A stretch of 57,188 nt of DNA, the filler included, from Bipalium vagum (taxonomy: Eukaryota), in the NCBI GenBank assembly GCA_037834085.1. It is 3 parts of 3 records of this genome, joined end to end, with 100 filler letters (N's around TTAATTAATTAA, not from the genome) between each part and the next. Parts side by side here need not be neighbours in the genome. Positions count along the whole stretch, not along the records: positions 18,672 to 38,604 come from JBBMKC010263755.1; 2 more parts are not named here. One strand, written 5' to 3'. Made by a program: the position numbers and the translations under genes. Positions 2,443 through 53,751 of the stretch are shown here, in pieces (position 1 is the first letter of the stretch; each line of letters opens with the position of its first letter). The notes under the pieces are model-generated. The model searched no databases and had not been told where the DNA came from. It was given only the letters and a program-made list of their open reading frames with translations.

Positions 2443-3507
2443 ATGTCTCATGATGACCAGCATATTCGACATGTTATTCTCTTTTATTTTCATAAAGGGA
2501 AAAACGCTACTCAGACACAAAAGAAGATATGATCAGTGTAGGGCAAAAATATAATAACCACTCGCATTTGTCAAAAGTGGTTCTAAAAATTTAACGAGGG
2601 AGATTTTTCTCTAAAAGATTAAGGTTGCTCAGGGCGGACATCTACGATCTATTAGATTTCATTGAAAAAAGACGATGCAGCACAACACGAGACATGTCAG
2701 AAATGTTAGATATAAGTCAGACGTCTGTACTTAATCACTTGGGAAAATTGGGCTACATCTCCTGTTAGGAAACTTTGGTACCTCATAAATTATCAGAAAA
2801 GAATATTAATGATCACCTTTCTGTTTGCAAATTATTATTGAAAAGGAACGAGAAAAGTCCCTTTTAAAGCAGCTAATTACAGGTGACGAAAATGGATCAT
2901 ATATAAAACTGAATAGATCATGGATAAAGAAAAACGATTCTACTATAGCAATCTAAAGGAAGTTTGTATAAAAAGTTTTACTTTCAATTAAGTGGAATTG
3001 GAAGGGCATTATTTAACACGAACTTCTTCCAAACAATGAAAAACTCTACGCTGATAAGTATTGTCATCAACTAGACGAATTTAAAGATGTAGTAAATAAA
3101 AAACGTTCAAAATTATCTAATCGAAAAGGAGTGATATTTCACCATGATAACGCAGACCTCATGTAGCAAAGAGTGTGCTGCGAAAAATTTCAGAGCTGGA
3201 ATGAAGTGTTAAGTTATCCAGCTTATTCCCCTGATACCGCTCTTTCAGATTAACATCTCTTCCGTTCCTTGCAAAATAGTTTAGATGGAAAAGAATATCG
3301 ATCTTTAGAAGATATCAGAATTCACCCGGACAAGTACTTCAGCCAACACAATTCTTTTCTGATGGTATCATGAAACTGCTCGAAAGATGGATACAGATAA
3401 CCGATCATAATGGTGTATATATTGTATAATAAATTTATAAATGTTACTTATAAGACTTCTTTAAAACATATACAAAAAAACGAACGAACTTTCAGTTCAA
3501 CCCAATA
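2443..3507 (+). mobile_element. Decayed mariner (DD34D) transposon: near full-length pseudo-transposase plus 3' TIR
   Basis: Frameshifted translation gives MSHDDQHIRHVILFYFHKGKNA..., QKWF..F.EGDFSL.D...SGR, LVPHKL (WVPHEL), LITGDE.WI, FHHDNARPH and YPAYSPD.ALSD.HLFRSLQNS. It ends ...cgaactttcagttcaacccaa-TA. The 5' TIR was not found. Confidence 0.92.
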
Positions 3508-3668
3508 CAACCTTTATTAATGATGACGTTAAATATGACTTTTTGTAATTTTTATTGATAATCTCAAACGATGAATCAGTTCAACCCAATCGTTTGAGAT
3601 TATCTATAAAAATTACAAAAAGTCATATTTGACGTCATCATTAATAAAGGTTGTATTGGGTTGAACTG
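3493..3668. repeat. Inverted repeat/hairpin, 80-bp arms (78/80 identical), 16-nt loop
   Basis: 3493-3572 is the reverse complement of 3589-3668 with 2 mismatches by eye. Confidence 0.95.
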
Positions 3669-18869: not shown

Positions 18870-20434
18870 TGATCGAAAAACGTTACGGGAATGGTTGGAA
18901 ATAAATATCTAATTCGTAATGTCGATGGCAAACGACAACGTCTAGATGGTGGTGGCCGTAAATTAATTTCTGAGGAGCTGAAAGAACTGCTTTTTGAAAA
19001 AATTCTTGACGAAAGGTTGCAAAAAAAGAAAGTTTCGCGAATGATGATTATTAAATGGGCCCATTTGTTTGTTAAAGATTTAGAAATGCCAACTTTTAAA
19101 GCAGCCATTTGTGGCTAGATAATATTTTGAGAAGAAACAAGTTGACAATTAGAATAGCCAAATGGTTAAGTAATTTGAGTGATGAATAAATTGTTGAACG
19201 TGGTATAAGTTTTATCCTTCTTTTCAAAAATATGATAGAGTGGAAAAAAAAGTTACAACCGTTACAGAGCCATTATAAAAAATTAATAATCTTTGAGTAA
19301 CAGAACTCAATTTTAATAACATTAATTTATTTTAAAAATATAATCAAAAAATTGAAATACTTGATAGAATCTTTAGCACCTCTCTCCTTCTTCATAAGTT
19401 CTACTCTACCAACATAAAGAATATTTTCTCTCACTGGATCACTACTTATCTTGCAAGATCGATGTTGCATTGTATTTTCTACCTGCAAATAGGAACGAAA
19501 ATAATTTTATGACTGGAAATAAAGGAGAAATAACCAACCTTAACTTTGTTGAGATTGAAAACCGATCCTAATATTGTGACGAATTTTCTCTTGAATTCAT
19601 TGTCCGACAAATGATGAACAAAGCAATCGAGAGCATCAAGAAAATAACACACGACTTGGTCTTGATGATGATTCACATTTTACAAATTATCATATTGGTG
19701 CTAATAAAGTGACAATTCTTTCTGAAAATCTATCGCGATTTCGAGTGACTGGTATATGTGCTGCTTCGGTAACCGGCAAAAAACTGTTGCCAACTCATTA
19801 TTAAAGGAAAATCCGAATCCATTTATACAAAGAACAATGTTGTTTTTTTAACTGCTCTAAAGTCTTGGATAAATTATAGTCTCCTGTAAAAATGGATCGA
19901 TTATATGTTTCCGGCTGTTACTGTAATGCCTAATCAAATATTACTGATTTTTGATAGTGCTAGAAGTCATCTTTCAAAGGATGTAAAGGAATTCTTTATT
20001 GTGTTATTCCTGAAGGACTAACTGGATTATTGCAACCTGGAGATACATTTTGGTTCTTAAATTTAGTCTGTGTGCACCGGTTAGACAATAGCTTCAGAGT
20101 GATACTTGGGAAAGAACCAAAACTGGGAAAGTAAAAGTTTCATCTAGTGATGTTCTTGAAACTTGGTTCTCCACTTCATGGATGCCCTAAGTAAAGATTT
20201 AATCAGAAAGAGTTTTATGTTAAGCTTTCTAAGAGAAAGTGAAAATTTATTAATTGCCAAAGATACACAGCTTGGACAAAAATTTTTGGAAGATCTGAGC
20301 TTGAAGATCTAATGGGTCCATTAGTTCAATCCATTAGTTCTTCATCTGATGTATTTGATATAAATACCCCATCAGGTATTTTTTGTACCTCGGGAGACTA
20401 ATCCCCATGGGGAATTAATCGAAGATTTAGAGTA
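18870..20434 (+). mobile_element. Decayed pogo/Tigger-family DNA transposon (CENP-B HTH + DDE_1) carrying a captured MDN1 fragment
   Basis: Remnants RQRLDGGGRK...KVSRMMI...FKAA.GWLDN.LRRNKLTIR, then after the insert RFRVTGICAASVTGKKL...IIKGK, LLIFDSARSH, VIPEGLTGLLQPGD and TKTGKVK...W...LSKDLIRKSF. The 3' terminus is ...gattagag-like (gaagatttagag-TA at 20421-20434). The 5' end was not found next to the gap and microsatellite. Confidence 0.88.
19252..19663 (-). pseudogene. Duplicated genomic fragment of MDN1 (copy of 34947-35358: partial intron, 122-nt exon, intron, partial exon)
   Basis: Colinear with a constant offset of 15695, no indels and 8 substitutions in 412 bp by eye. Same orientation as MDN1. 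Confidence 0.97.
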
Positions 20435-20970: not shown

Positions 20971-23900
20971 CTATCGAGTCGAGTATCGATCTCCGCCTGA
21001 CGACAAAGCGAACCACTGACGAAGAGCATCGGACAACAGAACGGGTAACTTAACAACGTTTTGCAACACGATAAAATGCTGGAAGGGGAAATGATCGAGA
21101 AACCGTACGAAATCTGTTCCGTCGTCTACGACCATCTTTAGATTGGTTATCGATTCCTTCTGATCCGGATGATCCAAAATCACGACAACGACCATGATGC
21201 CCCTGTGGTGCGCCTCACGAATCAATCCCACCAATTTCGGGTCGGAAACGTCCTCCGATAGATTTCCGTCGGACAGAATGATTAGAAATTGAGACGTGGA
21301 CGACGAATTTCGGCAACGATTTTCTTCAAATAACTTCAAAGTCTGCTCGAGCATAGGCACGAATTTCGAACTGCGATCGGTAAAGTCGAATTTATCAATC
21401 AATTCTTCACCAATTTCTGTGCTGAAAGTTTCGTAGAGCGGCACGACTTCTTCGGCCCTGTCTCCGAACTTACATACCCCAACCTGACCTACCTTAAGCA
21501 TTTTCAGTCCTTCTAAAACGATAGCCAAACTCTCGAAAAAAGTTTGGTCACTGACGTTGTACGACATCGACTTTGAGTTGTCTACAGCGATGATAACCTG
21601 GTATTCCCGTTGACGGGGCCGAATTCGTCGCATCCAGAAATTATTTTTGCTATCGTCTCCAGATGCCAAAATGTGCACCAACCGTTTCATATTGATTCTC
21701 TTACCCGAACTGAACGCACCGCCCAGCACGTTGGCCTTAGTCGGGTTGAGAACTGTTCGCAGATTCTCGCACAGGTCACCTATCAGGTACTGAATTCGAG
21801 ACACCACTTTCAACCATGTCAACTTTTCCGCGACTGTCTCAAGATTTTCTGCTACCACCACAGAATCGCAACCGTCCTTCTTCGCGTCATCATCGTTGTT
21901 CGATTGTTTTGGGTCTGTTTTCTTGTTCTCTTCCGTTTTGACACACGTCTTGTCTTCATTGTAATCATCTTCTTCCCGCTGATCCTGTTTCGCTTTGTTC
22001 AGCTGATCATCATCATCCTCACCGTCATAATCAATTTCCGGTATGCGCTGCTCTTGATTTGCTGTAGCGTCGTCGATTACCTGGTCTTCTTCATCCCGAC
22101 CATCGTCTTCATCAGCATTGTCATTTTTGTCGATATGTGCATAACTGTCAGCCAATTTCTGTCTTTTACAATCGTTCTCTTTTTCTTTCATGTCCACAAC
22201 ATCAGCTTTTCGCTTGAATTTCTCGTCAACATTTCCCAATTTCCGATTCTCTGATGGTTTCGACATCTCCTTTTCGTTCTTTTCCATTGGTGGTATTTCA
22301 TCGGAATGTTTCGATTCTTGTTGATCAATGCGACCGCTCTCTGAATTTTCCATGTTCTTGAAATTATCGCAACCATTTCCATTTCCATTGACTCCGTTGT
22401 CATCATTTTCTCCCGACATTTCTTCTGCGTCCATTTGAATATCATATGTCATTTCTTTCTCATTTGAGCAATCATTTCTGCCGACAATATTTTGTTCCTG
22501 GACTGTCAAATCGTTATCATTAGATTCGGTGTTATCTTCTGGATTCTCATCCTTCATTCTATTATCTTCAAGTTCAACTGGGTCTTCATTTGTCTCGCCA
22601 TCCCCTTCCACATCTTTTTCGTCTTCCTCATTGTTTTCATTATCCATTCCTGCCTCGTCTTGATTGATTTTATTATCCAATTCTCCATTTTCCTCGTTTT
22701 CATCCAAGCATCCATCATCATCCCAAAATTGATCAATGGCATCCATCTCATTTTCTTTTTCTTCATCCTGAACGTCATTGTTTTCCATCTCACCCTCCTG
22801 TTCTCCCCATTCGTTTGCATTTTCATTCGGTAAGATAGGTTCTTCCTTTTCTTTTGATTTTTCTTCTTCGTCATTACCACATTTTTCCTCATCGTCTGCA
22901 ACCGTTTCAACTTCATTTTCTTTCGAAGAGACACCTCCATTTCTTTTGTCCTCATTCATTTTTTTCTTCTCTTCATCATTGTTCTTATTGTCTTCCTCCT
23001 TTTCCGGATTTTCTTTATCCCAAGAATCTTTGTTAACATCGGTTTCTGGTGATTCACCTACTTCTCCCATTTTGTCCTCTAGATCTTTCATCTCGTCCTC
23101 TTTATCATTGTCATCGTCATTTTTATTCTTTTCCTTATCTTCTTTGTTGTCGTGCAGTTTGGCTTCGAAATCTTCAGTCATCTCAATACCGTTTTCTTCA
23201 TCTTCAACGTCTTTGTCTTGGTTCTCATCATTTTTCTGATCTTTGTTTGTACCTTCGATTTGTGATTCTGACTCAATTTGATCACTGACATCATTCATTC
23301 CAGTTCCTCCCGAATCCATACCTGCCATTTCAAAGTCATTTATTTTCTCGTTCTGTGAACCCTGTCCCTCATCACTATTCTTTTCCCATATCGACTCATT
23401 GGGCTTGCAGAACCCTTCGGTCATCAACTTTGAAGTCACAGTTATAAGAGCGTCCGTTGCACCCAACAAAACATTATGAATATTAATCAATAAAATTGAA
23501 AACTCTTGATTCAAATTCATCAATCGATTGAGATTAGGCAAAAACTCTTCATTAATATTCCTTCTCAACTCCTCCAATGAAGAAAGATTATGAATCGCTT
23601 TAAAACCATCTATAATTGTTTGTAATTGATTTCCGATTTTATCTATTCCAATACACATTTCCATTTTATCGACTTCATCAATCATTTTCACAATTGATAA
23701 ATCGATATCTTGATCATCATTACACACCTTATTCTTCAAATACAAATCACTAAATTTTGTTAAACTTTCATTAACGGATAACTTCACATTATCGATCATT
23801 TTTTTAAATTCTGTCAACGAGCTGGGTTCGTTCTGTAAATTGGTTCTCGGCAATGATTTCAACATCCTCGATTCAAGTTCTTCAATAATCGTCCAATTTC

Positions 23901-26900
23901 TTCGGTTCAATTCTTGAAATTCACAAGTTATTGATGAATTGATGTCTATCCAGTCGGGTGAAAATTGAATTTTTATCTCTTCAACTAAACTGTCTAATGA
24001 TTTCACGATAGACTTTTGACGATTTAAACAGTCCACATGGTCCTGTGTAACCAGAAAACCTTGTGGGACTTCATTTTTACGAATTTCTTCTTTAATTGTA
24101 TTGATCATTTCAACAATTTTTGCGCAGCTGGAAGAGAAAGATATTCCTAATAATAATTTCGGTTTCAAATTATCATCATTAATTAGGCTGGGAATATTTT
24201 CAGAACTGGGTCCCTTGGTTACCGATTCTGAACACAAGATAATAAACCTAGACCATTGGCAAAGTTTATCTTGATAATCATTATTCATCGACTTAATTTC
24301 TTTCTCAATACAAACTGGATCGATTGAAAACTGAATTTCACTTTGCATTGTTTTTGTTATTGATTCGGTCATCATTTGAACAATTTCCAAATCTTTTTTC
24401 CATCGATTGATTCTAATCGTGCTACTGCATGAGATGGATAGTAGATGATCACATATTCCAATCAAATGGTCTTTGAACATGTTAAACTTGGCGAATTCTT
24501 CAGATTTATCTGATTCATCCAACTGTAACCGTAGACCGATGCAACGAATTGCGCTCAATTGATCAGAATTGGCTGATAACACATTCAGCTCCACGTCACC
24601 CGACGGTAAATGGGTCATTAAAGCCGTGTGCCGGGGAAACCGGCCAAAAAATGAGGTTAACCCAATTTCCTCTTTTAATTGTTTAACAAAAGACGTGACA
24701 AAATTTCGCTTTCTCTGTTGTAAATTCTTGACCTTAACTATCCATGTTTTCTTCAATGATTCCATCATCTTTTCGTCGTCAGAAGAAGCTTTCACATCCT
24801 CCACTGCTTTCGTCTCCAAATCTGTCGTTTCTTTTCGAAATTTCGTCATTGCATCCCACATTTCTTCACAGAAACCTGTCATTTCTTTGCACCATAACCA
24901 AGTGAAAGACGGCTGGAAAATGTTCAATTTGTTCATCGAAACACATTTCAAAGCATTGATGGGATTCAAGATCATGAACGTTGAGACCGATTTATTGATC
25001 ACCTCGTTCCATTGACGAAGATACTTGAATACGATCTTGTGACATTTGGCCAAGTCTGTCGATTTAGGAGGAGCATCTCCCCATTTTTTCGTCTTGATGA
25101 AATTCTTCAATTCTTGTTCGATTTTTTTGTGTTCCAACGATAAATGATCATCTACATTTCGTTCATATAACCGATAATAATCCAAATGATTTTTCAAGAT
25201 GAATTTCAATTTTTCTAAAAATCTATTGCTTCTTTTCATTTCCTTTCTGCTGCACATGGAGCTTACATAATCGATTATAAGTTTGATAACAGATAGTCTC
25301 GGCTTGAAATTGCCAACGATACTATTGGTCACCATAAACATAATCGGCTCAAAAATAGTATTGATAGAATGTTGGAAGTCATTTATTTCGTCTCGATCAT
25401 TTTCACATTGACTATCGATTTTCTCAATCTCAATCAATATATTGTTATAGATTTGAAAAAAGTCTACCGATACTGACCGTTTCAATTTCCACGAAGCCAT
25501 AACGAGAGTGTTTTGCCACATTTTCAATTCCTCATGACTCCATAGTGACAACAATCTGTTCAATTCATCGACATGTACCAACAAAGAAACGTGCCGAGCG
25601 GCAACAATTTCCCATTGTTGGATTTCGTGCATCAATCGTTCTACACTCGTTTTAAATGAAATCAGGGGACAATCGAGAGATAACATAAGAATTCCATCGA
25701 TCTTCTTTTCTATGCGCATCAGTGTGACATTATCAGGATAGTCGTTAAGAAGTTTTTTCACACTCTTCTTCGTTCCTTCCAAAATCGATTGAGTGGTAAT
25801 AATATTACCAATCTTAACGGGATCTTGATAAATATCATAGGGCTTCGCATAATCGATTGTCTGTTCTTTTGACGAACTGTTTAAACTTTCATATTCCCAA
25901 GATAAAGCTGAAATATGTGACGGGAATAGGCACAATTTATCTTCAATAACGACATTGCCACTGTCCGAACAGATCAATGCCGCTGCAAACTGATAACAAT
26001 CTCTGTACACATGTTGAGATTCTTGTTCTTGTTGATCTGGTGATAACATTTTGCTCCCATTGAAAATATTTTCAATCAATGTGACAATTGAATGCACTGT
26101 GTCTTCGGATAATATCAGGGCACGCTCCAATGTTTGGAGCTGTTCTCTCAGATTCTGAATTTTCAAAATAGCTGAATTCATTGTCGTCGACATTTCCATT
26201 GATTTATGATCAAAATACCCATCGCCATTCAAGCCAGAAGTTGCAGGACAAACTTCCAGATAAATGTTCAAAGTTTCCAACTCTTCTTCATTCAAATTCT
26301 CGGTAATTGATTGTTTTTTCATGTAACTCGAAGCTTCAGCTTCCTCTTTTTCCCGTCTTTTCTTCTCTTGCTTGTTCCACAACGTATTGAAAATGTCGAT
26401 CAATTTGTGCAATAGATCCACTGTCCGTTTAAGATCTTTATTTGGCAAATTTAAAAGTCTCAACGATAAATGGAGCAGTTTCATGTGAACTTTTGCCATT
26501 ATTTCAGCTTTACTCTCACCAATCAATATACTACAGTGCTTCATTATATCATACTCCTCCTTTAATATTCGTTCCACTAAATCAATATTGTTGCAATTAG
26601 GAAATTGACAAAACAATTCACACATTTTCGTTGCACTTTTTGTCCGTTCGTCAAAATCATTGTTCAATATAGATTTTGTTCTCTGTATCAAATCCATTCC
26701 GACTAAAACTCTTCCAATTGCCAAAGCCAATGGTTCAATGAGATCGGGGAATGCAAATCGATCCGTGCTGGAGAGGAAATATTCCAATAGCTCTCCTGCA
26801 CCCATACTCCACTCGATAATGAAACTGGAATCCAAATCCGAAACGTTTCTCATTGTCGAATCACTGTCGTCACACAATAACGTCCATCCATATCGGGACA

Positions 26901-29900
26901 TGAATCGAATTATTCGATTTCTCAATTCGTGGAATTTTCCATCTGGAACAGGTCTCAAAACAGATGAGACTTGCTTTTGGAATACTTCTCGTAATTCTTT
27001 CAATCTCTTCCATGTTGCATGTAATAAAGGATGCTCCAACCCGTGAGCATTCCAGCACTGCTCTGAATGGTTGTCACTGTACTTGTTTATACCAATAAAA
27101 AACCGCCGGTACATCGAAGCGATATTTTCTTGTGTCGATAAATCTTCGATTTCCTCACTCAAATATTTATTCTCCCAATATAATTGACATTGTGGATCCA
27201 ATGTTTCCGTGACAATAAATAATTTCATTTGAACACAACCCCAGCGAATCCAAAGTTTTCCGATTTCCATTGTTACCAGTCTGTCGTCTTTTTTATCGTG
27301 AACCATCTTTTCCAAATTATTTATATCGCTTTCCAAACAAAAGAACCAAGGAAAATGAGCGTTTATCCATTCATCGACATTGCCCTCTTCGTTCCAGCAA
27401 CTGACTATACAATTTCTTTGTGAACGAATTAATGTGGTCAATAGTTTTCTTTCCCGTTCACTAAAATTAAAAAAGGATATTAAAAAGAGAAGGAAACCAA
27501 AATATGGAACATTACATTCGTAACTTTTTTGAAGTAATAACACAAACACTTTCCATATAATTGATCTTGCAAATTTTCAATTGATTTTTTCTTGTTGAAA
27601 TTGACCGTAAACATCTGTTAGCCGAATTGACAGACCCAATGTTACTCAAATAGCCATAAATGTCTTTTTCACATCGACTTCCGTTTACGAGAAGAAATAT
27701 CGATTTATTGGGATCGGTCCATGTGTCTTTAATACTTGGCTAAAGTAAACAAAATTCAACAAAACGTCGTTAATTGCACAGTATATCTAAAATATATTCC
27801 TCAATAATAATAACCTGTTTAAATTTTGGGTTTGAGAAATCCAGCTCGATCGTCTGTTCGTCCGCTTCAGTGTTAATGTGAAAATTACAATTGGCAACTA
27901 TTTGATTCCATGCACCTTGGCTTATAAGATAACTTGTCCAATCGGAAAGTGAAATGAAATTGATGTTCATCTGATCTGAATCTGTCAATCGTTTTTGAAA
28001 ATCACATGGCAATGGAGGAATGAACGATCCAAATTCCAAAACATTCACCAGAGGTTTCGATGATGAGTTTATCACCTCAGCCAACATTGTCAACATAAAT
28101 GGCCAGATTCGAACAGTTTCAATATCAAATTGGCTTAGAAGATCATTTGAACTTGTGTATACTGGTTTTGTTTCCATTGCATAGTTACAAAACAATGTGC
28201 ACAATGAACTCTTTAACGACTCCTCTCCCATTGCGTTCCAAATCGTTATGGATTTTTTTTCCAACTGTTCACTTGAAATCAACGATCGATAATAATCATA
28301 ACAATCGATCAGATTGGAGTGTGAATAAGTTAATCTCACAAGATTTCGTTTTACACCAATAGATCTGAATATATCACGCACTATTTCCATATTTTCATCT
28401 GGGTTCAAGTGTTTCTCGTTTAAATTACTTAATATTTTCTGACCGACTTTCTTTATTTCTCCGTACTTGACATTAGCAATAGACAAAGTTTCTAAAATTG
28501 ATGTTATGTGAAATGAAAATGCACTGATCCAATTATTGTCTTTTGACGGAACAAATTGGCAAAATTGATGCAACAGTTTGCTAACTCGAATTAACAAGAA
28601 CATATTATCCATGTTGCACAATTCACCAAACGAAAATGTTGATAAAAGATGAATAAAATCCAAAATCGATTTGTCAAAACCAACCAATCGGCTGATAATA
28701 GCTTTCGATAATCGACCCAGTCCCAATAACTTTGCAATTTGGAACACGTTGAATGTGCCAATTGTATTTTCAGTCAAAAAACTTGGTTTCACATTTTCAT
28801 CGATTGCAAAATATTCTCTGTGGTCCATCGAATTTTCAATATTATACATGTGGAACAAAATCCTGCAAATTAAAAATAAATAATAAATAGAAAATTTAAA
28901 TTAATTATAAAAAAATAAGAAATACTCACGAGTTTGCTTGTCGGAAATCTAATGAGAGGAACTCGGCCCAATTTGGTAGCCACCTCAAATCGATTGGTAA
29001 GGACGAATCGTTGCAGTTGATTTGAGATCGACGCAAAATGTCACTGAACCTGTTGCATAAACTGCTATAATCACTATCAAAATTTTCCATTAAAGACAAT
29101 CGATCACAGATATCGTTCAAGCTGGAATACTGCATGAATAGTCGAGCTACGATTATTCTATTTTCTGAGTCCATCGACAGTAATTTTATGCAATTCTTAG
29201 CAGCCGTAAAATGCTGTCGAACCATTTCAGTCTTTGGATTACTGATCAGATTGCACAACGATAAAGTGCCACAGAAGATTTCATTGTCCAGACATTCTTT
29301 TCCCTTGTTTTCAAATATATTATTAGAATTGCTTGCAATGATTTCATTAATTTCATTTCTGACATTGAAAGTAAGTTGCATGTCTTTATACACTATCTCC
29401 AGACAATCGTTCAACGCGTAACCCTGGTTTAGAAGTCGACATACTTGCATCAATGAGGAAACGTTTCCGATTTTGATTTGTGGAAAATTTTCCTGGCACT
29501 TTATCACAGTTTTGTGGAAATGTAAGACTTGTAGTGCTTGTTCTTCGCCTATTTTATGAGAATTGGTCAATAGAGACAAAATGTCTTCATCGTTCAATGG
29601 CTGTTCTTTATGAGACGCTACCATAGCAATCTCCAAACCTCTGTTACGCATTGCCCTTGAGATTTCTTCTTCACATTCCGGATCCATTATGAGAAACATT
29701 CTAAAATTAGGATGTGGTTTAATTTCTTCCAATTGACCACCTTTTATTGGACCGCGCTCGTTTAAAATCAATGATCCATTTGGCTCCAATAATCCATTTA
29801 ATCGATCCAATACAGATGGTTTACAGAAGTTAACAGTATCCAAAACCAACCAATCGCCATTTTTCAATGATTGTACCAAAGTACTATCGATCCATTTTAT

Positions 29901-32900
29901 TTGTCGACCGCCTTTGATTTGTTCGAACGAACCCAACAAATCGCACGTTTCCATCGAACTATTCATTGACATTGTTCTCAAATTATTTCTCGTAATTTCA
30001 GCTAATAAATTAATAATGCTTGTTTTACCCGTTCCGGAACCACCGGCAAGAATCGTTAACCAACCCATTTCGATTGTCAACATTATTGATTCCAATGTCC
30101 ACAACTGACCGGGTAAAACAAAACTCCTTTCAATAAATTCAGAATTTTTATGGCAGTTATTAGTGTCATTATTGATTTTTAATTTTGCTCGTCCAACTTT
30201 TACAAATTCACTAGTTACATACAACTCTGGGTGTTTAAGCCAAAGTTTACTAAATCTGTATTCTTCAGCTAAGCCGTTGTAGAGATTAATAGCTGCTTCT
30301 TGATCATCCTGTGTACGGAATCTGGTAACAAATAATAATGAGGCAAAAATTGATGGCTCAAAATAAGCGTTTTTATGGTCTTGCTTATGAGCAATCAATA
30401 AATCACACCATCTCGTCAAGTCTCGCAAATTAAATTCCCACGGTGAACCTCTCAATCCAAAAGACCGTAACACCATTACTTCGTATTGGAGTCTTTGTAC
30501 ATAATCGACCATAAAACGAATTGTTTTTTCTGGAATTTGGCAATATATATTCGACAAAATATCAACATAATCTGACGTTTCGAGACTGGCCATGTAAACC
30601 TGATTGAATCGATTGATAAACGATTTCGGAAGACTGTTTCTCCCACTACCTTCGCTTTGAGGATTTTGACAAGCAAAAAATCTAGTCTGACCGCGCTTCA
30701 GGTGGAAAGTCTGATTGATTTCCGGAATATATATTTCTCCTCGGTGATCGAAACATGCGTTAAGACTTTCCAAAACTTCAGAAGAAGCTAAATTCATTTC
30801 GTCCAGTAATATCCAGTCACCATTTCGTAAAGCCTGAAGAAAAGGCCCATCTTTCCAAGAAAATTCAAGTCCATTTTCATTCTCTGTTGGTAAAACACAC
30901 CCGAACAAGTCACTGGCTTCGGTCTGTTCTGAAAGATTTATACGTACCACTTTGAATCCGGCAATTTTTGCCAATTGGCTCACTAAGCTGGTTTTGCCTA
31001 CTCCTGGGCTTCCTTCCAACAATAGAGGCTTTTTTCCTATTTGCATAGCTCTGAATAATCGATAAAGATTATCGATAGTTGTTTTGTTCGTAAAACTGTA
31101 TTTTTGATTGTCTTTATCACCATTTGAAAAATTACCAATCAACGAGGAATCCGTATATGGGCCCATTGAAATATAGAAAGGACTTATTCCAATATGACCT
31201 GAAGACTGGATATTCAATTTCTTATCGATTGAACTCAAATCAAATTTATTATCCACTTCCGGTATATATTGATTGACGAAGTATTTGATTTTTTCGATCA
31301 ATCGCATCTCGTAAAGTTTCTTTTCTACCTTATTACTGATTGAGTCAATAATAACCATGTAAGCACCGTGCATTAATGATTCATATATTGATACTTTATT
31401 GGTCTGTGAAACATTGATGAATTGAATCCACGCTAATAAGTCTCGAATTGTAACCACGGAAAACCTGAATAATCGCTTAATTTCAGACATTTTTTCTTTT
31501 AATGTTACTTACTTAATTTCATAAGAAATTTCATGAACATATCGTAGAAAATTAACGACAACTTTAGCTAGTTTTATTTTGATCTCTGGAATTTCGATTT
31601 GTTCATCCAGAGACAGATTCCTTTCAGCGATTTTAACCCAATCATTAAATCCACTTTCTGTCGTGTTCCACGAATTTGATGGACACCATATTTCGGTAAA
31701 TCGATTTCTCAGAGCTGGTGACAATTCCTTTTTTCCACTATCACCACCGGGATTCATCGTAGCTACAACTTGGAATTCGGGGCTGGCAACAATTTCATAA
31801 GAAGACTGATTTGTTTTTTGCACTGACTGCTCAGTATCACTTGCACTATTTTCTACCAAAGTCAATTTGCGATCTGACTCCAACACACTGTTCAATCTCT
31901 CCAAAACCGAATGATCTGCTAATGATATTTCATCGATGAGAAACATTTTTCCTTCTTTCATTGCAACCACGAGGGGCCCATCAATCCACTCAAATAAGCG
32001 ATCGCTTTTCTGTTGAAATAAAGAAAAAACAAATGATTTAATAAATTTCAAATTAAATTTTTAACAATTTTAATTAAATTAAATATATTTATTTTTAATT
32101 GAATAATTATTTTTAATTTATGTTTTTTAATTATCAGTTATAAAACAAATTTTAAAGATACTATTGATTTCTTACTTTGTCATTGTCAACGGGTCGCATT
32201 GCACCAAGAAAATCACTTGCATCCGTGTATTGATGACAATTGATAGATAACAATTCACAATTTCTGACCATTGCAGCCAATTGACAGACAGTGGTTTTCC
32301 CACACCCAGTGTTACCAACTAATAGCACTGGTTCATTGCACTGCAAAGATCGAATAAGTAAGACTGCCAAGCGACACAAATCAAAGGTCCATTCAATACT
32401 TTCCATTCCCTGGATCATCGAACATTTTTCCAAAATGGATTTTGCGATATTCGATCCGGATGCTGAAAAAAACCATTCGTCGTTCAATTGAACTTGAGAA
32501 TTTTTAAATATTTCTGCCAAAGTGTCCGTTACGACTTTCACTCCTTCGATCGATCTCTCCTTTCCTGTCAACAACAAATAACCCTCTTCCACCATACATC
32601 TCTCCCAATCAAAAAATCGATCTGCTTTATCGTGCTGCTGATACACTCTCCTGGCCCAACGAAACAAGTCTCTCAATGAAATGTACTTTTGATTTCCTTG
32701 AGCCAAATCCAATTCCTGAGTTTTTATATGCATTAAACGCATAGTTTCTACCATTTTTCGTCCTTTGTTTTTCGGTATCTTGCAACATTCATCCAGAATT
32801 TCCACCAATTCCACATCAGGTATTGGATTGAAATGAAGTTCAATAAATCGATTTCTCAATGCTCGAGACAAAACATTGCGCCCACCATACATTCCAGGAG

Positions 32901-35900
32901 GGTTTTGTGTGGCAAATAATCGAAACATCGGATGAGCTTTAATTGTTGTTTGAGTTTCCGGAATAAACAATTCCCGGTTATCGTCCAAAACTCGATTGAG
33001 AGCTTCTAACACTTCAGTGGGTGCCAAATTCAACTCATCCAAAATAATCCAATGACCCTGTCGCATAGCGTGAACAAGTATTCCTTCTTTGAACACAAAT
33101 TTCCTTTTTGATCCACTAGAACTTTCATTGACATATGATCCGACGTATTCTTGTACATCGGTTGATTCGTGATTATTAACTCGATGACAAATGTTTCCTG
33201 TCAATTTTGCCAAATATGTAATCAAACTCGTTTTACCAACTGATGTTTCTCCTTGAACCAATACCGGTAACGATTTCCTGATTTATTATAAAAAAAATAA
33301 TAAAGCTTTTTGAAAAACTCAACATATTTACCCAGAAGACACAATTCTCGCTAAATCTTTCAGATTTCGACTAACAGATTTTGTGATTTTGTAACCTTTC
33401 ACAAATTCGTCAATTTCCTCAATATTGGTTTGATATATCGATCCAGTTTTAATCGCGTAACCCATTATTATTTTGTAATCTTTTCTTATCAATTGTTCTG
33501 CTACGCTCGCATTGCTCAATAATCCAGAAACCTCAAATTTTGTCAAATCGATTTTGAAATGTTGTCTAAACAAATCGTCAAAAATTTGTCTCGATTCGTC
33601 TTTCAATTGAGATTTGAAACTGAAACTGAACCCCTGAATACATCGATGAATATTTATCCGTCAATTAAACATATATTACGTACCTCATACAGTGCTCTAA
33701 TTGTTGTCGTCTTGTACAACTCACTGGTAATAATATGTCCGACGGCTTCAAGACCTCGACAAAGTGTTCTCAAACTAAATTGCGGTTTATTGTCCGCTCC
33801 ATCGACAATGCGATTATTTTTCACATTCATTCTCAAGTCTAAATAAAAAGAGACAACGGATTCCGCCAGTCGATAACTCAACGATCCCAAATAATATTTA
33901 ACAATGACACTCAATTCTTCCACATCGTCCAGTTCGTGCAAATAGATTTCTGTAAATCGATTTCGAAGACCTTGGGGTAAATTCTTCTTTCCAACGTCGT
34001 TACATGGATTCATGCAGGCAAACATTCTAAAGTCTTCATGCCTTTCTATTGGTATTTTGTCACTGAGGATATCATTATATAAATTCAACAATTCGTTTGA
34101 AAAATATTACCCTCTTTCTGTTAATGTTATTGACCCTTTGGATGATTCCAAAAGACCACTAAGGCTTTGTAATATTTCAGGAGGAGCCAAATTAATCTCA
34201 TCCAATAAAATCCAATCACCGTTTTTCATTGCCTTTACCAATGCTCCTTCAATAAAGGAAAACGTATAACTCGATTGCAACTTTTTCAGTTCTTTTGATA
34301 ATAAATCAACATTTTCGTAAATGTCACTCCAGTCTTTTTTCAATGATTCTGATAAAGTTAACTTTTCCAAACCATGAACTGCATCAGAGATAACTTTGCT
34401 ACCAATGAGTTTCAGAAAAACATCGTAGTTCTTCGACTCATAAGCTTTCTAAATTTAAACAATATTTATTTTTATTGACTTATTAATTTGATTTCAAACG
34501 AAAATTGGTCGTACCTTTACATAATTCAGAAAAACTGCATTCTTTTCTCCATTAAATGACAACTGGAAAGCTTTATTGAAACAATTCATCAAATCGTTAA
34601 ATCGATTATTCAATATCGATTTCTGTTCTTCTGACATGGCATTGTTGACGGGTTTATATCTGACAAAAATAAGAAATTTTTTGAATTATATTTAAAACCA
34701 ATGTAGCTTACCCTCCTAACCAGTCAGCACTATCACTTTCCTGGTTCATATTGATTACAATGAGTTTTCGATAGAGTAATTTGCTCAAATATTGTACAGT
34801 CGATGTTTTACCACAACCAGTTTCACTTACTAACAACACCGGTTCTTTCATTTGTACACATCGAGAAAGGGTTTCCAAAAGTTGAACCATTTGTCGTGTC
34901 TGTGCCATATGCCTAGAAGGACTGAATGGAGTTGAAAAAAGTAAATGTCACAATCGTTACAGAGCCATTATAAAAAATTAATAGTCTTTGAGTAACAGAA
35001 CTCAATTTTAATAACATTAATTTATTTTAAAAATATAATCAAAAAATTGAAATACTTGATAGAATCTTTAGCACCTCTCTCCTTCTTCATAAGTTCTACT
35101 CTACCAACATAAAGAATATTTTCTCTCACTGGATCACTACTTATCTTGCAAGATCGATGTTGCATTGTATTTTCTACCTGCAAATAGGAACGAAAATAAT
35201 TTTATGACTGGAAATAAAGGAGAAATAACCAACCTTAACTTTGTTGAGATTGAAAACTGATCCTAATATTGTGACAAATTTTCTCTTGAATTCATTGTCC
35301 GACAAATGATGAACAAAACAATCGAGAGCATCAAGAAAATAACACACAGCTTGGTCTTCCGTGGACAGGTTAATGTTAGATATTCGGTGACAAAATTTGA
35401 AGAGGTCTCTGGAACTATTCACTCTCGAGAGACCTTTGAGTTCATTGAATTTCATGACCAGATCAAGAATGCCTTGTGTACAAGTCAACTTAGGAAGAAA
35501 CGATGTGATCGACGGATAATTGGATTTGATTATTATTTCTAAACTGGCATTTGACAACTTGTCTATCAAAATCGTTTGACATTTGTTCAAGCAATTGGAA
35601 CTATATCTGCAATTTTCCGTTTTCAAACTAACTTCTCGGTAACCATCCTCGATCTCTGAAAGACTTTGCGTAACTATAATGCGAAAGTCTTCACTTGCTA
35701 TAATTTCTTCATTTAATTGAATAATATTGGTTAATTTTGGTCTTAATCCGTGGGTTTTGGCCTCAAAGAGAGATCTCAGCATGCCAAAAATATCTGATTG
35801 ACCAGTCAAAACATCCTCCAAGACTAACCAGCAGCCATTTTTCATAGCTCTAATCAGTGGTCCATCAACCCATTTATATTCGTTTGGTACATCAGTGCAA

Positions 35901-36374
35901 CAATAACCGCCTAATAAAGTTTTGTAATCTGTATCGTCACTCATTTGAACTTTACAGACGGTTTTATTCATCTGTTTAGCCATATAATCAACAAATGTAG
36001 ACTTTCCACTTCCAACCGGTCCATTTAGAAAAATACATAATTTATTTTCTATACACAGTTGAAAATGTTTGATATTTTTTTCCATTTGAGGAATATTAAC
36101 GAAATTATCTATTTCTGAAAGATCCTAAATAAAGAAATACGTTACCAAAGCGTTTCCTAATTAAAAATCAAACTTTTTTAAGATTGTCTAAAACATTATC
36201 AGTTTTCATTTTTTTATTAATGTGACTTTTCTAAAATACATTATTCATTTCAACATTTAGTAAACAACAAACTTCATTAGGTACTCTCCGCTTTTTACTG
36301 ATTTTACTTTTATTATTTGATGAAGACTAAATTATTATTATATAAATCATATCATCATAAAATATAATTACCAT
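20971..36374 (-). CDS. MDN1: Midasin (MDN1/Rea1) AAA+ ATPase, pre-60S ribosome biogenesis factor; 16-exon model, ~4798 aa
   Basis: Six AAA modules with Walker A GPVGSGKS, SETGCGKT, GETSVGKT, GNTGCGKT, GSPGVGKT, GGSGTGKT and Walker B e.g. WILLDEINLA, WIILDELNLA, FLIDEISLA, WILLDEMNLA. These are followed by a long helical linker, a D/E-rich tether and a C-terminal MIDAS domain (DNSKS...ILSDG...LRQWF). Phase-consistent GT-AG exons, 5' to 3': 36372-36374, 36273-36326, 36174-36230, 35234-36124, 35056-35177, 34712-34921 (alternative acceptor 34912), 34515-34659, 34111-34448, 33684-34062, 33332-33633, 32176-33277, 31513-32009, 28930-31464, 27815-28862, 27516-27739, 20971-27460. Total 14397 nt, divisible by 3. 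The first three micro-exons are the least certain. Confidence 0.97.
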
Positions 36375-36743
36375 GAAAAGTTTTTAAAATATTTTGAGGT
36401 TAAATTAATATTTAAACAATATTAATATGATAACCAATATTAAATTTATTTTTAAAATGATATGAAATTAATAAATTTAGAGGTCTATGTAAATAATTTC
36501 TTATTAAATTGATTTTCATAAAAACACTGCTTATGGATTCTATGATTTAATTCATCTGTTATCAAAACCTTTTGACTCATTACACGGGATTGAGAATATG
36601 ATCAACCTGCTTAATTTATTTTAGTATTTCAGAAATGAATTAGATAAATCTTATTAAATACTTCTGAATATTACCAGAAGATCTATTATGTTACCTATAT
36701 ATTAATTAACTATAAATCTGTTTTCGTCCAGATTTGAAAGTTA

Positions 36744-36825
36744 CAGAGTGATACAAAAAGTAACGCAAAATTTCATGATCACTTACTAGATCGATAAAAA
36801 TGTTGTTACTTTTTTAAACCCCCTG
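36744..36825. mobile_element. ~82-bp MITE-like element with Tc1/maT-type TIRs upstream of MDN1
   Basis: TA-cagagtgatacaaaaagtaac...gttacttttttaaaccccctg; imperfect ~22-bp inverted termini. Confidence 0.5.
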
Positions 36826-38524
36826 TTTTATTATACCATTTTATTATACTGGTAATTTAGAATATACATAATAATTTAAAATACTCCATTGTAATCACTA
36901 ATTTTTTTAAAAAATTTAGCTTTAATAATTTCCACAGCATTAAGTAAAAATTAAAAATTTTCTAACTTAATTTTAAAAATTATAAACAGCTTTTTATCTA
37001 GTAATGAATATTGACTTTTTTTATTCATCTTTAAATTATCCTTACATCTTTTCAATACAATTTTAGGTAGATTGACATATAGCCAAGAACAGATAAATAT
37101 TACATTTGGTCTACATTCAAATTTATGGAGAATCAGGACTATGATTGAAAAACTATGTTGAGCCATGACTCTATGCTGGCTTTGGATGGTAAGGTAGGGT
37201 TTTGATCGTGGTGCTCCCCTTTAAAACTGATAGTTTCTCTAGTATTACACGTCCAGGGCTAAACTCCTCTTCAGCATACAACTAATGAGAAATTTTTTGA
37301 TACTTTTTAAGGTTTGTATAAAGATCTACACCCAGACCTTGTTGTAAAAGACAAGTTGGGAAATCCAAAATGTATGTTATAAAGATGGTTTCTAAAAACG
37401 GAGCATTTCCATTACACAAAATACCCCGATTGTGTAATTAATAAAATATTTTATAAATTACACTTTATTTAAGATATTCAAATAGTGTCTTTTAAATAAT
37501 TTTAGGATGTAAATACATTTTTATGTTTTCTTCAAAATCCATGAAAAAATATTTTCATTGATGTTTCAGTCGATGATAAAAATCTTACCATTATCGGATA
37601 ACTGTTCGTTTTTGCAAATTATACTTTTTCTTATTAATCAAATCCGCCTGCAGGAATCAATTAATTATGAGAAAGAATTGGACAAGAAAGGAATAATATT
37701 AAAAAAGAAGATTGTTCATCACGATTTGAAAGTATACCACACCGAATTCAGGTTTTTTTAAAAGCAAAAGTTAAATATACATTATCTTAAAAATTCAGCA
37801 AAAAATTGTTTGGATGATATGGGTGTGTTTTTATTTTAATAAAGATTTCAGTTTTCACTTTGACTTCAATTTTTTTTACATTTAGTAGAAGGAGGAATTA
37901 TTTATATTGTGTGAAAAGTTTAGGTTGATAAGCAATTGTTAAAGGTGAGTTATTAAAGTTTTAAGTAAAAAATGGAAAACATCTGAACAATTGCTTGAGT
38001 CAGTGAATATATTATCAGTTCTTCAAGTATAAATTGTTCAATTGTTCAAGTGGAGCTTTTAAGAGATAGAAGTCGAACTCGCCCTTAGCTTGCAAAACGA
38101 AGTTGAGGTCTTATGACAAAGTCAGGTCTCATATTCTTGATAGAATAAGAGTATTTAAATATTTAAATGAATTTGATAGAGTTTATGAAGCAAAATGAAC
38201 TGAACAAATATTAATTATTATAAAAGTCTTAAGAAATAATCCTATAACTTATGAATTAATTGATTCACTCGGAGAAAATTATTTAGGTAAGTTTTGAGTC
38301 TGATTTACAAAAATAAAATTTTAATATTTGTTTTAATCAATTCTATAAATATTTAAAGCATCTTGAGACGAAATCAAATCAAAATATTTTATAATATATA
38401 ATTTATTATTAGCTTTTATGCAAAAATCTTATTAAAATCTTTCTCTTTAAAATGATTTCTAAAATTTACAAACTTTAAATAAACATTTAAATATTAATTT
38501 AATATATATATTATAATTTAATTT

Positions 38525-51636: not shown

Positions 51637-53751
51637 TCAATGAGAATTTATATTGCTTGATTTACTTAATAAATTAGTACGTTTCACAGTTTGACTTTCT
51701 TCTCTTACACTATTTGTAACTTTTGTGGTACTTCTTGAAGTTCTTTTCTCATCCTTCATTTCATCAAACATCTTTCGTCTTAAGTCGAACTGATCCATCA
51801 TTTGTTGATCAAATGCTGTATTTTCTGATAAAAATTCGTTCTCATTTTGATGGAGGGTCGTTGAGTTAGTGTAAACGTTACTAGACCGAGTACTTGAGTT
51901 CTGGTTGACTGAATTGACCTGATTTGAACACGACGTGGATGTCGTTGCGATTGATGAAAAATGTGTAGATTCTCTTATAATAATTTTTTTCGACACTGAA
52001 GATTGTTGAATACATTGTTTAGAAAAATTCGTACTTTCATCTTCAACAAAAGTTTTAGATGAAGTTGAATGTACTGTCGATGTGTGAGTTTTAGAGGTAT
52101 TCGTAGAGCCGATCTTATTATTAGGGATATTGTCTTCATTTATCTTATTCCTTAAATTTTGTGGTTCGAACGATCTCTGATTTTGGCTTGATGTCGAAAT
52201 ATTATTTTTTGTTAAAATTGACGAGTTACTGTTTGCAAACTCAGATTGAGTAGAGTTGTAATTGTTAGATGACTGAGATGTTAGATTGGTTTTCTGTTGA
52301 CTAATCAAATCCTTTGATACTTTAGCTGAATTTTGGATGTTCTTTCTTAAGTCTGGTTTCGTAGAACTTGGTGGTGGAGGTGGAGGTCCAGGTGGAAGGA
52401 ACAGATCCGAGCAATTAGTTGAGGCAGTGGAAAATGGCTTAGTTTTCTCATTATCAAAGTTGACTTTGTGATTATCGTACTTTGAATTAAAGCCACTAGT
52501 GACATCATTGTCTTTTGACCTCTTCCTAGTTACATGGGAAATATTGGTCTTAGTACTAATTTTATCTGATTTTCTTATACAATTGTTGCTTTGAGAAGAA
52601 ACATTTGAGTTATATTTAGTGGAGATCTGTTCGTTTTTTTCACCACTTGATTTAATAAAACTTGAATTTTTCACAAAGGAAACTTTTTCATTCTCAAGGT
52701 ATGTTGAGATAACACTTTTGTTGGGTTTAGGAAGTAGTGGTGGTGGAGTTCTTTTGACACAAGAAATGTCCGGTTTACAAGCACTTGGAATTTTGTTTTG
52801 AGAATTATTTGAAAAATTATTACTTTCACCATTGAATTCTGAACTCCTATTTAGGTTTTTCAGAAAACCTTTTGTACCTTTCGTATTAATCTGGTTTATT
52901 GCACTATGTAATTCACTTGTCAAATCTGTTTTTTTCGTTGGGGCTAAGTCGGAAGTAGTGGACGGAGACTTATTTGACGTTTGTGAGCATTCAATTTTAC
53001 CATTAGTGGGAATTTTTAAAACTTGCTTTTCTAAATTGCTTTCATGACTAGTCTCTGATTTAGAATTGATATTTGAAATTTTTGATTGTGATGTGACGGT
53101 TGATGGATTTGGTGGTGGAGGTCCAGGAGGAGGAGGAGGAGGTGGTGGTGGTGTGTCACCAGAAATTGATAAAGGCTGAGACATATTTTTAAAACTTTTT
53201 TCTTGTTCAACATTTTCTGGCCTCTCTAAATTCGTGTCAAAACTTATTTTATTTGGAAATCCGTTTATATCTGCAGTTGTAGAACAAATCATTTTGTCTG
53301 AATTTCGTGCTGTGAAAGTTTCATTTCTTCTGGTACTCTCCTTTTCGCGAAAAGGGTGTTTCTTAAGATATGATGAAAGATTTTGTATGTTTTCAGATTT
53401 TTCTTTCTTTTTCATATCAGACAAGGGTTTCGACCACAAGAAAAAATCTTGAGAATTTGCTGAATCTGTAGTACCGTTATTCTCTTTTAGTTTTTTATTT
53501 TTATACATTAATATTTCTTGAAATGGTCTAACGGGACAAAAATCTTGCTCTTTTATAAAAGAATAATTATCTGGACCATCTTTATTCCTGTCTTCTAGAA
53601 CTCTCATATTGCTAAACTTGTTTGTAGTAGATTGTCTTCTTGTTTCAAAATCTTCATCTGGATGAAAAGAATTATCGAAATTCCTTAAGTCATCAAAGGT
53701 ATCCTGGTTTATTCTTTGCGCATTATTCGTTTTTTGTTTGTTATTCTTCAT
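51637..53751 (-). CDS. Intronless 704-aa low-complexity Ser/Asn/Thr/Lys-rich protein with polyproline tracts and a WH2-like motif (possible actin regulator)
   Basis: A 2115-nt uninterrupted ORF from ATG in very AT-rich DNA. It has tracts PPPPPPPPPGPPPP, TPPPLLPKP and LFLPPGPPPPP, and the segment SELHSAINQINTKGTKGFLKNL (helix followed by an LKxx-like motif). Function is inferred only. Confidence 0.75.
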   Translation of the reverse strand: MKNNKQKTNNAQRINQDTFDDLRNFDNSFHPDEDFETRRQSTTNKFSNMRVLEDRNKDGPDNYSFIKEQDFCPVRPFQEILMYKNKKLKENNGTTDSANSQDFFLWSKPLSDMKKKEKSENIQNLSSYLKKHPFREKESTRRNETFTARNSDKMICSTTADINGFPNKISFDTNLERPENVEQEKSFKNMSQPLSISGDTPPPPPPPPPGPPPPNPSTVTSQSKISNINSKSETSHESNLEKQVLKIPTNGKIECSQTSNKSPSTTSDLAPTKKTDLTSELHSAINQINTKGTKGFLKNLNRSSEFNGESNNFSNNSQNKIPSACKPDISCVKRTPPPLLPKPNKSVISTYLENEKVSFVKNSSFIKSSGEKNEQISTKYNSNVSSQSNNCIRKSDKISTKTNISHVTRKRSKDNDVTSGFNSKYDNHKVNFDNEKTKPFSTASTNCSDLFLPPGPPPPPPSSTKPDLRKNIQNSAKVSKDLISQQKTNLTSQSSNNYNSTQSEFANSNSSILTKNNISTSSQNQRSFEPQNLRNKINEDNIPNNKIGSTNTSKTHTSTVHSTSSKTFVEDESTNFSKQCIQQSSVSKKIIIRESTHFSSIATTSTSCSNQVNSVNQNSSTRSSNVYTNSTTLHQNENEFLSENTAFDQQMMDQFDLRRKMFDEMKDEKRTSRSTTKVTNSVREESQTVKRTNLLSKSSNINSH

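Follow-up and report, generated by a model that had tools for sequence, protein, structure and literature searches.

Two questions are raised by a short stretch of the Bipalium vagum genome (positions 36125-36374, minus strand): what stands in place of the N-terminal domain of its midasin, and by which route does the resulting protein enter the nucleus? The stretch belongs to a sequence of 57,188 nucleotides (assembly GCA_037834085.1; three parts of three records, joined with filler letters), which is referred to here as 'the window'. A first-pass annotation had proposed that the N-terminal domain ('N-domain') had been replaced by micro-exons that encode a bipartite classical nuclear localization signal (NLS). 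The reading that we favor, and to which we assign a probability of roughly 60%, is that the gene encodes an intact midasin that lacks both the N-domain and the helical insert of its sixth AAA module, that its PY-NLS is broken, and that a short basic N-terminal 'tip' is likely to act as an importin-alpha signal in place of the transportin route.

The gene itself is readily recognized. It lies on the minus strand of a single complete contig (positions 18672-38604 of the window, from a 441-Mb assembly of 272,664 contigs), and the joining of exons at GT-AG boundaries gives a model of 16 exons and 4,795 codons (20971-36374) that has no internal stops. Six AAA+ modules stand in tandem, with lid domains of the midasin type (Pfam AAA_5, AAA_lid_7, AAA_lid_5 and MDN1_4th, with six Walker B-type sites), followed by the long linker, which matches those of mollusc, insect and chordate midasins, an acidic region, and the C-terminal MIDAS (vWA) domain, which closes the last exon as a VWA_2 match and carries its DxSxS motif at residue 4593. 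The top matches in the PDB are midasins. The first module and its lid are encoded by one exon (35234-36124, minus strand), in which the Walker A motif (36022-35999) begins at residue 73, as the first-pass annotation had placed it. A contig assembled from a sequence run ('X1') corresponds to positions 31400-35317 with no differences and no intron skips; the filtered record set from which it comes has no long piece over 35320-37400.

The genome search returned a single match to the MIDAS domain and a single full match to AAA1, and a second canonical copy was rejected on that basis; a pseudogene was likewise ruled out, the 4,795-codon model being open throughout. When the AAA1 exon was used as a query against proteins of 521-2000 residues, one match was found among 1515 candidates. 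Midasins use ATP to strip NLE1/Rsa4 and WDR12/Ytm1 from pre-60S particles, and only one match to an NLE-domain gene was seen in this genome. Trees built from the AAA ring nest the protein among animal midasins, beside those of flatworms, with monogenean, tapeworm and fluke sequences as its sister group (FastTree support of 1.000 in trees of 40 and 155 sequences, and an SH-aLRT value of 100 in a tree of 25, with seven or eight neodermatan sequences in the trees). The branch is long, is not attracted by other long branches, and shares the AAA6 deletion described below with the neodermatan group. No relative above about 40% identity was present among the best 150 matches of a HMMER library search. 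These comparisons draw on sets that are rich in fish and fungi and whose samples are not independent, with a flatworm set that contains no triclad, Macrostomum or catenulid midasin. The feature is real, and the protein is a known one in a novel variant form.

The surroundings of the gene hold several further features. A copy of 433 bp, 96.5% identical to part of the gene, lies 1.3 kb past the midasin stop (19235-19663 versus 34926-35358, both on the minus strand); it covers the last part of the AAA1 exon, the adjoining intron, the exon after that and most of the intron that follows. Position 35317, where the X1 contig breaks, falls within the copied stretch, in line with a real two-copy repeat. 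Beside the copy is a broken frame (about 19700-20400, plus strand) that we take, from its motifs, to be a decayed transposase of the pogo/DDE kind, and which may have carried the captured midasin fragment. Upstream of the gene, positions 37300-38030 contain two dispersed repeat families that match the genome at dozens of other places. In the third part of the window are found an exon of a sodium/calcium exchanger (PF01699; 45083-45737, plus strand) and a frame of 704 codons that includes a polyproline run and matches no Pfam family (51637-53751, minus strand), and in the first part a near-perfect palindrome of 176 bp (3493-3668, arm identity 92%). Several import and export factors occur in pairs in this genome (L002-L018, which we take to be two each of proteins like importin-7, exportin-1, importin-beta and importin-5), and midasin was found once.

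The predicted 5' end consists of three coding pieces separated by three phase-0 GT-AG introns, all on the minus strand. The start codon (36372-36374) would be the sole coding part of exon 1 and is followed by a good donor (7.0 bits); intron 1 (36327-36371, 45 nt) leads to exon 2 (36273-36326, 18 codons, with KKRR at residues 12-15), intron 2 (36231-36272, 42 nt) to exon 3 (36174-36230, 19 codons, with KKMK at residues 25-28 and an alternative Met at 36209), and intron 3 (36125-36173, 49 nt), which ends in a strong acceptor (9.4 bits), to the AAA1 exon. The fourth codon upstream of the ATG is an in-frame TAA, and the first AG met upstream ends at 36485. Everything that the first-pass annotation had reported of these boundaries is present at its coordinates. 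The layout of its ATG-only coding exon is not, in itself, unusual: an intron placed right after the start codon is described as a common and enriched arrangement (Nielsen and Wernersson 2006, PMC1626468).

The three 5' introns are inferred from DNA signals, and the strength of those signals was assessed by listing every splice path that reaches the AAA1 exon from 37300 downwards (introns of 36-200 nt, at most four per path) and giving each a score from models of splicing, length and coding that had been trained on the 12 introns and the exons downstream. The three-intron parse ranks first of the 59 paths (46.5, against 43.2); among 500 dinucleotide shuffles, its score was attained in five, and a short-intron path with a bipartite motif arose in one. 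Exons 2 and 3 are coding-like in the modelled frame only, and the occurrence of an ATG directly before a GT within a 36-nt span is expected by chance about 3% of the time. Introns 1 and 2 have weak acceptors (1.5 and 0.3 bits) and are shorter than any of the 12 downstream (48-166 nt). Six paths, the top parse among them, use introns of 75 nt or less throughout; four begin at the ATG of the top parse, and the two that begin at 36209 lack a basic motif. Short introns can extend the protein upstream by at most 110 residues within this enumeration. We consider it quite likely that the exact three-intron parse is correct.

In a nucleoplasmin-type bipartite classical NLS, two basic residues are followed by a spacer of 10-12 residues and a K-K-x-K cluster. 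The protein predicted by the top-ranked parse matches this pattern at residues 12-28 (basic pair, spacer of 10-12 residues, basic cluster), in agreement with the spacing, KR-(10 aa)-KKMK, noted at first pass. The accompanying claim that the signal 'forms only after splicing' holds for the bipartite pattern; the monopartite KKRR is complete within exon 2, so that only the bipartite form depends on intron 2. Across the enumerated paths, the bipartite motif is encoded by 2 of 59 and the monopartite motif by 43 of 59.

Comparable motifs are found at the same end of other flatworm midasins. Of 17 flatworm records, 6 have the bipartite pattern ahead of AAA1 (Clonorchis, Opisthorchis, Paragonimus heterotremus and both Taenia) and 9 a monopartite motif, a count that adds two Schistosoma records and P. 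kellicotti; among 223 non-flatworm proteins, the bipartite pattern precedes AAA1 in six and a monopartite motif falls within the first 40 residues in two. The flatworm records that have no basic motif (8 of 17) start 55 residues or less from the Walker A motif, or have no AAA1 start, and are provisionally read as truncated gene models. Whether such a signal was 'gained', as the first-pass annotation put it, is doubtful, even though the basic, NLS-like tip itself is there: a K-K/R-x-K/R motif precedes AAA1 in 17 of 23 non-flatworm invertebrate N-domains (and in 5 of 86 mostly vertebrate records), which suggests that a classical-type signal near the N-terminus is old among invertebrates. Thirteen of these invertebrate motifs lie in one loop, 160-185 residues before Walker A, often as E-P-x-K-K-K-K, and the flatworm tip may have been kept from that loop or may have re-evolved. 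Importin-alpha is encoded at two loci in this genome, and we think the tip is probably the main import signal of this midasin.

The best argument for a switch in import route, and one that the first-pass annotation did not contain, comes from the other end of the protein. A MIDAS-loop PY-NLS is reported to be the import signal of Rea1, and to be present in all orthologues from yeast to human (PMC6624252). In the element-II loop of the present protein (21607-21741, minus strand), the consensus R/K-K/R-I/V-I-P-Y is replaced by KRLVHI (21687-21670), so that PY has become HI. At the tyrosine position, where this protein has Ile, all 209 other loops (a set picked by pattern, from which very divergent loops are excluded) have Tyr or Phe; at the proline position, here His, 195 of the 209 have Pro. 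Three upstream basic positions and an F-R-K motif have also been lost, and the loop retains GKRINMKR and RRIRPRQR. No PY match is found elsewhere in the protein, in which four R/K/H-x2-5-P-L matches remain. This break in the PY-NLS, as read from motifs in one genome, is a new observation. A HEAT_EZ family search of the genome shows that transportin-1 is encoded (an IBN_N family search did not have transportin among its matches); with transportin-1 and two importin-alphas encoded, the pathway itself is retained and the loss is specific to midasin. The basic tip does not force the loss of PY, since all 12 of the neodermatan loops that were found keep it. The loop is also reported to have a second, essential role in the release of Rsa4 (PMC6624252, PMC11603028), and foreign signals that were swapped into the Rea1 loop are described as rescuing import only (PMC6624252).

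The alternative that survives best, although we consider it unlikely, grants the loss of the N-domain and denies the tip a role in import. The tip would then be a low-complexity or RNA-binding tail, or translation would start downstream of it (at 36209 or 36085), and the protein would enter the nucleus by means of the remaining basic residues of the loop or bound to a partner. AT-rich coding sequence favors Lys and Asn, 7% of the 72-residue windows of this same protein hold a monopartite match, GKRINMKR and RRIRPRQR are still in the MIDAS loop, and the best score per intron belongs to a one-intron parse from 36209. Against this, the bipartite pattern is matched in only 1.2% of the same 72-residue windows, the pattern recurs at this end of the protein in flukes and a tapeworm, and exons 2 and 3 are coding-like solely in the frame that encodes the tip.

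A further alternative, which we judge improbable, leaves the protein unchanged and concerns the source of its first residue: the N-domain would have been lost and the tip would be as modelled, with the initial Met supplied by a spliced leader joined in trans to the acceptor of intron 1, at 36327, which could take such a leader in frame, and the genomic ATG-GT would be a parallel or chance site. All reported flatworm leaders are stated to end in ATG and to be able to start translation (PMC12582326, PMC9851317), cis- and trans-splicing are said often to use the same acceptors (PMC12582326), and the leader AUG is given as in frame in 28% of those S. mansoni transcripts that are trans-spliced (PMC9851317, citing Cheng 2006). 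However, a strong donor with an ATG lies 45 nt upstream of the acceptor (an arrangement expected by chance in about 1-3% of cases), start-codon introns are common (PMC1626468), and leader counts are 0 in both of the midasin rows for S. mansoni in a published supplement (PMC5832876).

The favored reading, that of an intact midasin with an importin-alpha signal at a shortened N-terminus, presupposes that the N-domain is truly absent, and this is very probably the case. Residue 55 of the model aligns to residue 297 of yeast Rea1, so that about 240 residues are missing. In 14 of 17 flatworm records the Walker A motif begins at residue 13-109 (of the remaining three, one has no AAA1 start and two carry long extensions, in one case as a model fused to a ribosomal L7Ae domain); in 223 other proteins its median position is residue 316, with a position below 150 in eight. 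No Pfam family covers the N-domain in three control proteins. A hidden Markov model built from 27 animal N-domains reaches 20 bits or more in 93 of 121 control proteins; its best score over 15 flatworm N-termini is 2.2 bits, it gives the present midasin 0.8 bits, and it is blind to the short S. pombe domain (-2.2 bits). A six-frame scan of the window with this model gave no match (best -4.6 bits), a word-limited search with an 11-sequence alignment, itself without a positive match, found no stand-alone N-domain protein among 3506 candidates, and an insensitive single-protein search with one mollusc N-domain query found none in the species' own genome. The first-pass statement that 'this lineage' lost the domain therefore stands with respect to the loss, to which the HMM, the position of Walker A and the co-lost AAA6 insert all attest, and fails with respect to the lineage: the absence is common to all flatworm midasins retrieved, including those of parasites, and the loss is thus older than this lineage. 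Garbarino and Gibbons reportedly described short N-domains in Giardia and Encephalitozoon in 2002, so a midasin without an N-domain is, as such, probably already known.

The absence of the N-domain is accompanied by that of a second element, and the coincidence of the two is a new observation from the aligned sequences. The H2 region of AAA6 (29886-29939, minus strand) is reduced to a short hairpin, with a helical insert of about 100-130 residues absent from the interior of one long exon, so that this deletion does not depend on the 5' model. In yeast, the N-domain is described as occupying the place of the absent AAA6S and as touching both AAA6L-H2alpha and the linker stem, and deletion of AAA6L-H2alpha as lowering ATPase activity only modestly (PMC6286127, PMC6920918). 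The corresponding gap in the alignment was measured in 271 proteins, of which 235 passed filters and 36 were dropped. It is 8 in the present protein, as compared to a median of 117 in 214 proteins with a long N-terminus, of which two, both extended flatworm models, fall below 40. Among the 21 proteins with a short N-terminus, the gap is at most 11 in 18 (14 flatworms and four others), and the three that keep the insert comprise two labelled partial and one beginning at Walker A. Three of the dropped entries also have a short gap, namely two flatworms and Mycena citricolor. The double loss appears in three separate clades of the tree, although the starts of the two non-flatworm clades may be gene-caller cuts; the non-flatworm proteins concerned (P0091, P0152, P0135, P0115) have no basic tip, and the three with a C-terminus have PY. 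Two Mycena citricolor models (P0106, P0272) keep the N-domain without the insert, by a real one-sided loss or by an exon that the models skipped, so that any coupling is one-way at best. That the N-domain was merely missed, being encoded on another contig past a long intron or by a split-off gene, with the loss an assembly artefact, is very improbable: the assembly is fragmented, the contig ends 2.2 kb upstream of the gene and the domain is structurally central in yeast (PMC6286127), but the domain is also absent from flatworm records on contigs of 18-33 Mb, the insert that partners it is deleted within an exon, the six-frame scan was negative, and short introns could add no more than the 110 residues given above.

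The order of events that we infer has two steps. An ancestor that this lineage shares with flukes and tapeworms would first have lost the N-domain together with the AAA6L-H2alpha bundle, which pack together at the ring-linker junction in yeast, while a basic signal at the new N-terminus was kept or re-made; with two import signals then present, the PY-NLS could have decayed in the present lineage, and in the loop the GKR-x-N-M core and the R-R-x-x-P end would have stayed, probably for docking to the ring. A broader proposal, which we offer tentatively, is that ribosome assembly in flatworms is carried out by a 'minimal' midasin from which N-domain and AAA6 bundle were removed as a unit, as may have occurred independently in at least two other eukaryote lineages. 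Under that proposal, this protein would be a natural mutant that separates the import role of the MIDAS loop from its mechanical role, with the loop residues kept here as candidates for the mechanical core. In yeast the Rea1 N-domain acts as a brace where ring and linker join; a natural midasin that has neither this brace nor PY would also show which parts of the motor are dispensable. The loss of the N-domain would explain the internal-Met starts of several flatworm database models, and it indicates a structural difference between flatworm and vertebrate midasins. We found no paper on the architecture of flatworm midasin, and the passages of PMC3264779 that were consulted make no mention of reduced forms.

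When set beside the known systems, the protein resembles Rea1, S. pombe Mdn1 and metazoan MDN1 (6HYP, 6I26, 5JCS, 6OR5) in its six tandem AAA_5 modules with midasin lids, its long linker, acidic region and C-terminal MIDAS with DxSxS, and also in a retained AAA2 H2 insert and a degenerate AAA6 Walker B; unlike them, it has no N-domain of ~250-300 residues, no AAA6L-H2alpha bundle and no PY in the MIDAS loop, and bears a short basic tip. With the database models of parasitic flatworms (Clonorchis, Opisthorchis, Paragonimus, Schistosoma, Taenia, Echinococcus, Hymenolepis, Spirometra and Cichlidogyrus) it shares the missing N-domain and the short AAA6 hairpin, and with those of longer 5' ends (flukes and a tapeworm) the N-terminal basic cluster; it differs from them in having lost the PY that all 12 of their loops that were found retain, and it branches outside them on a long branch. 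The tip resembles a nucleoplasmin-type signal in its pattern (residues 12/13-28), whereas here the predicted pattern is split over two tiny exons. Finally, the predicted intron between codons 1 and 2 is like the phase-0 start-codon introns described in PMC1626468, but those are reported to be enriched in short, lysine-rich proteins, while the present one would open a protein of 4,795 residues in a phylum whose spliced leader can also supply an AUG.
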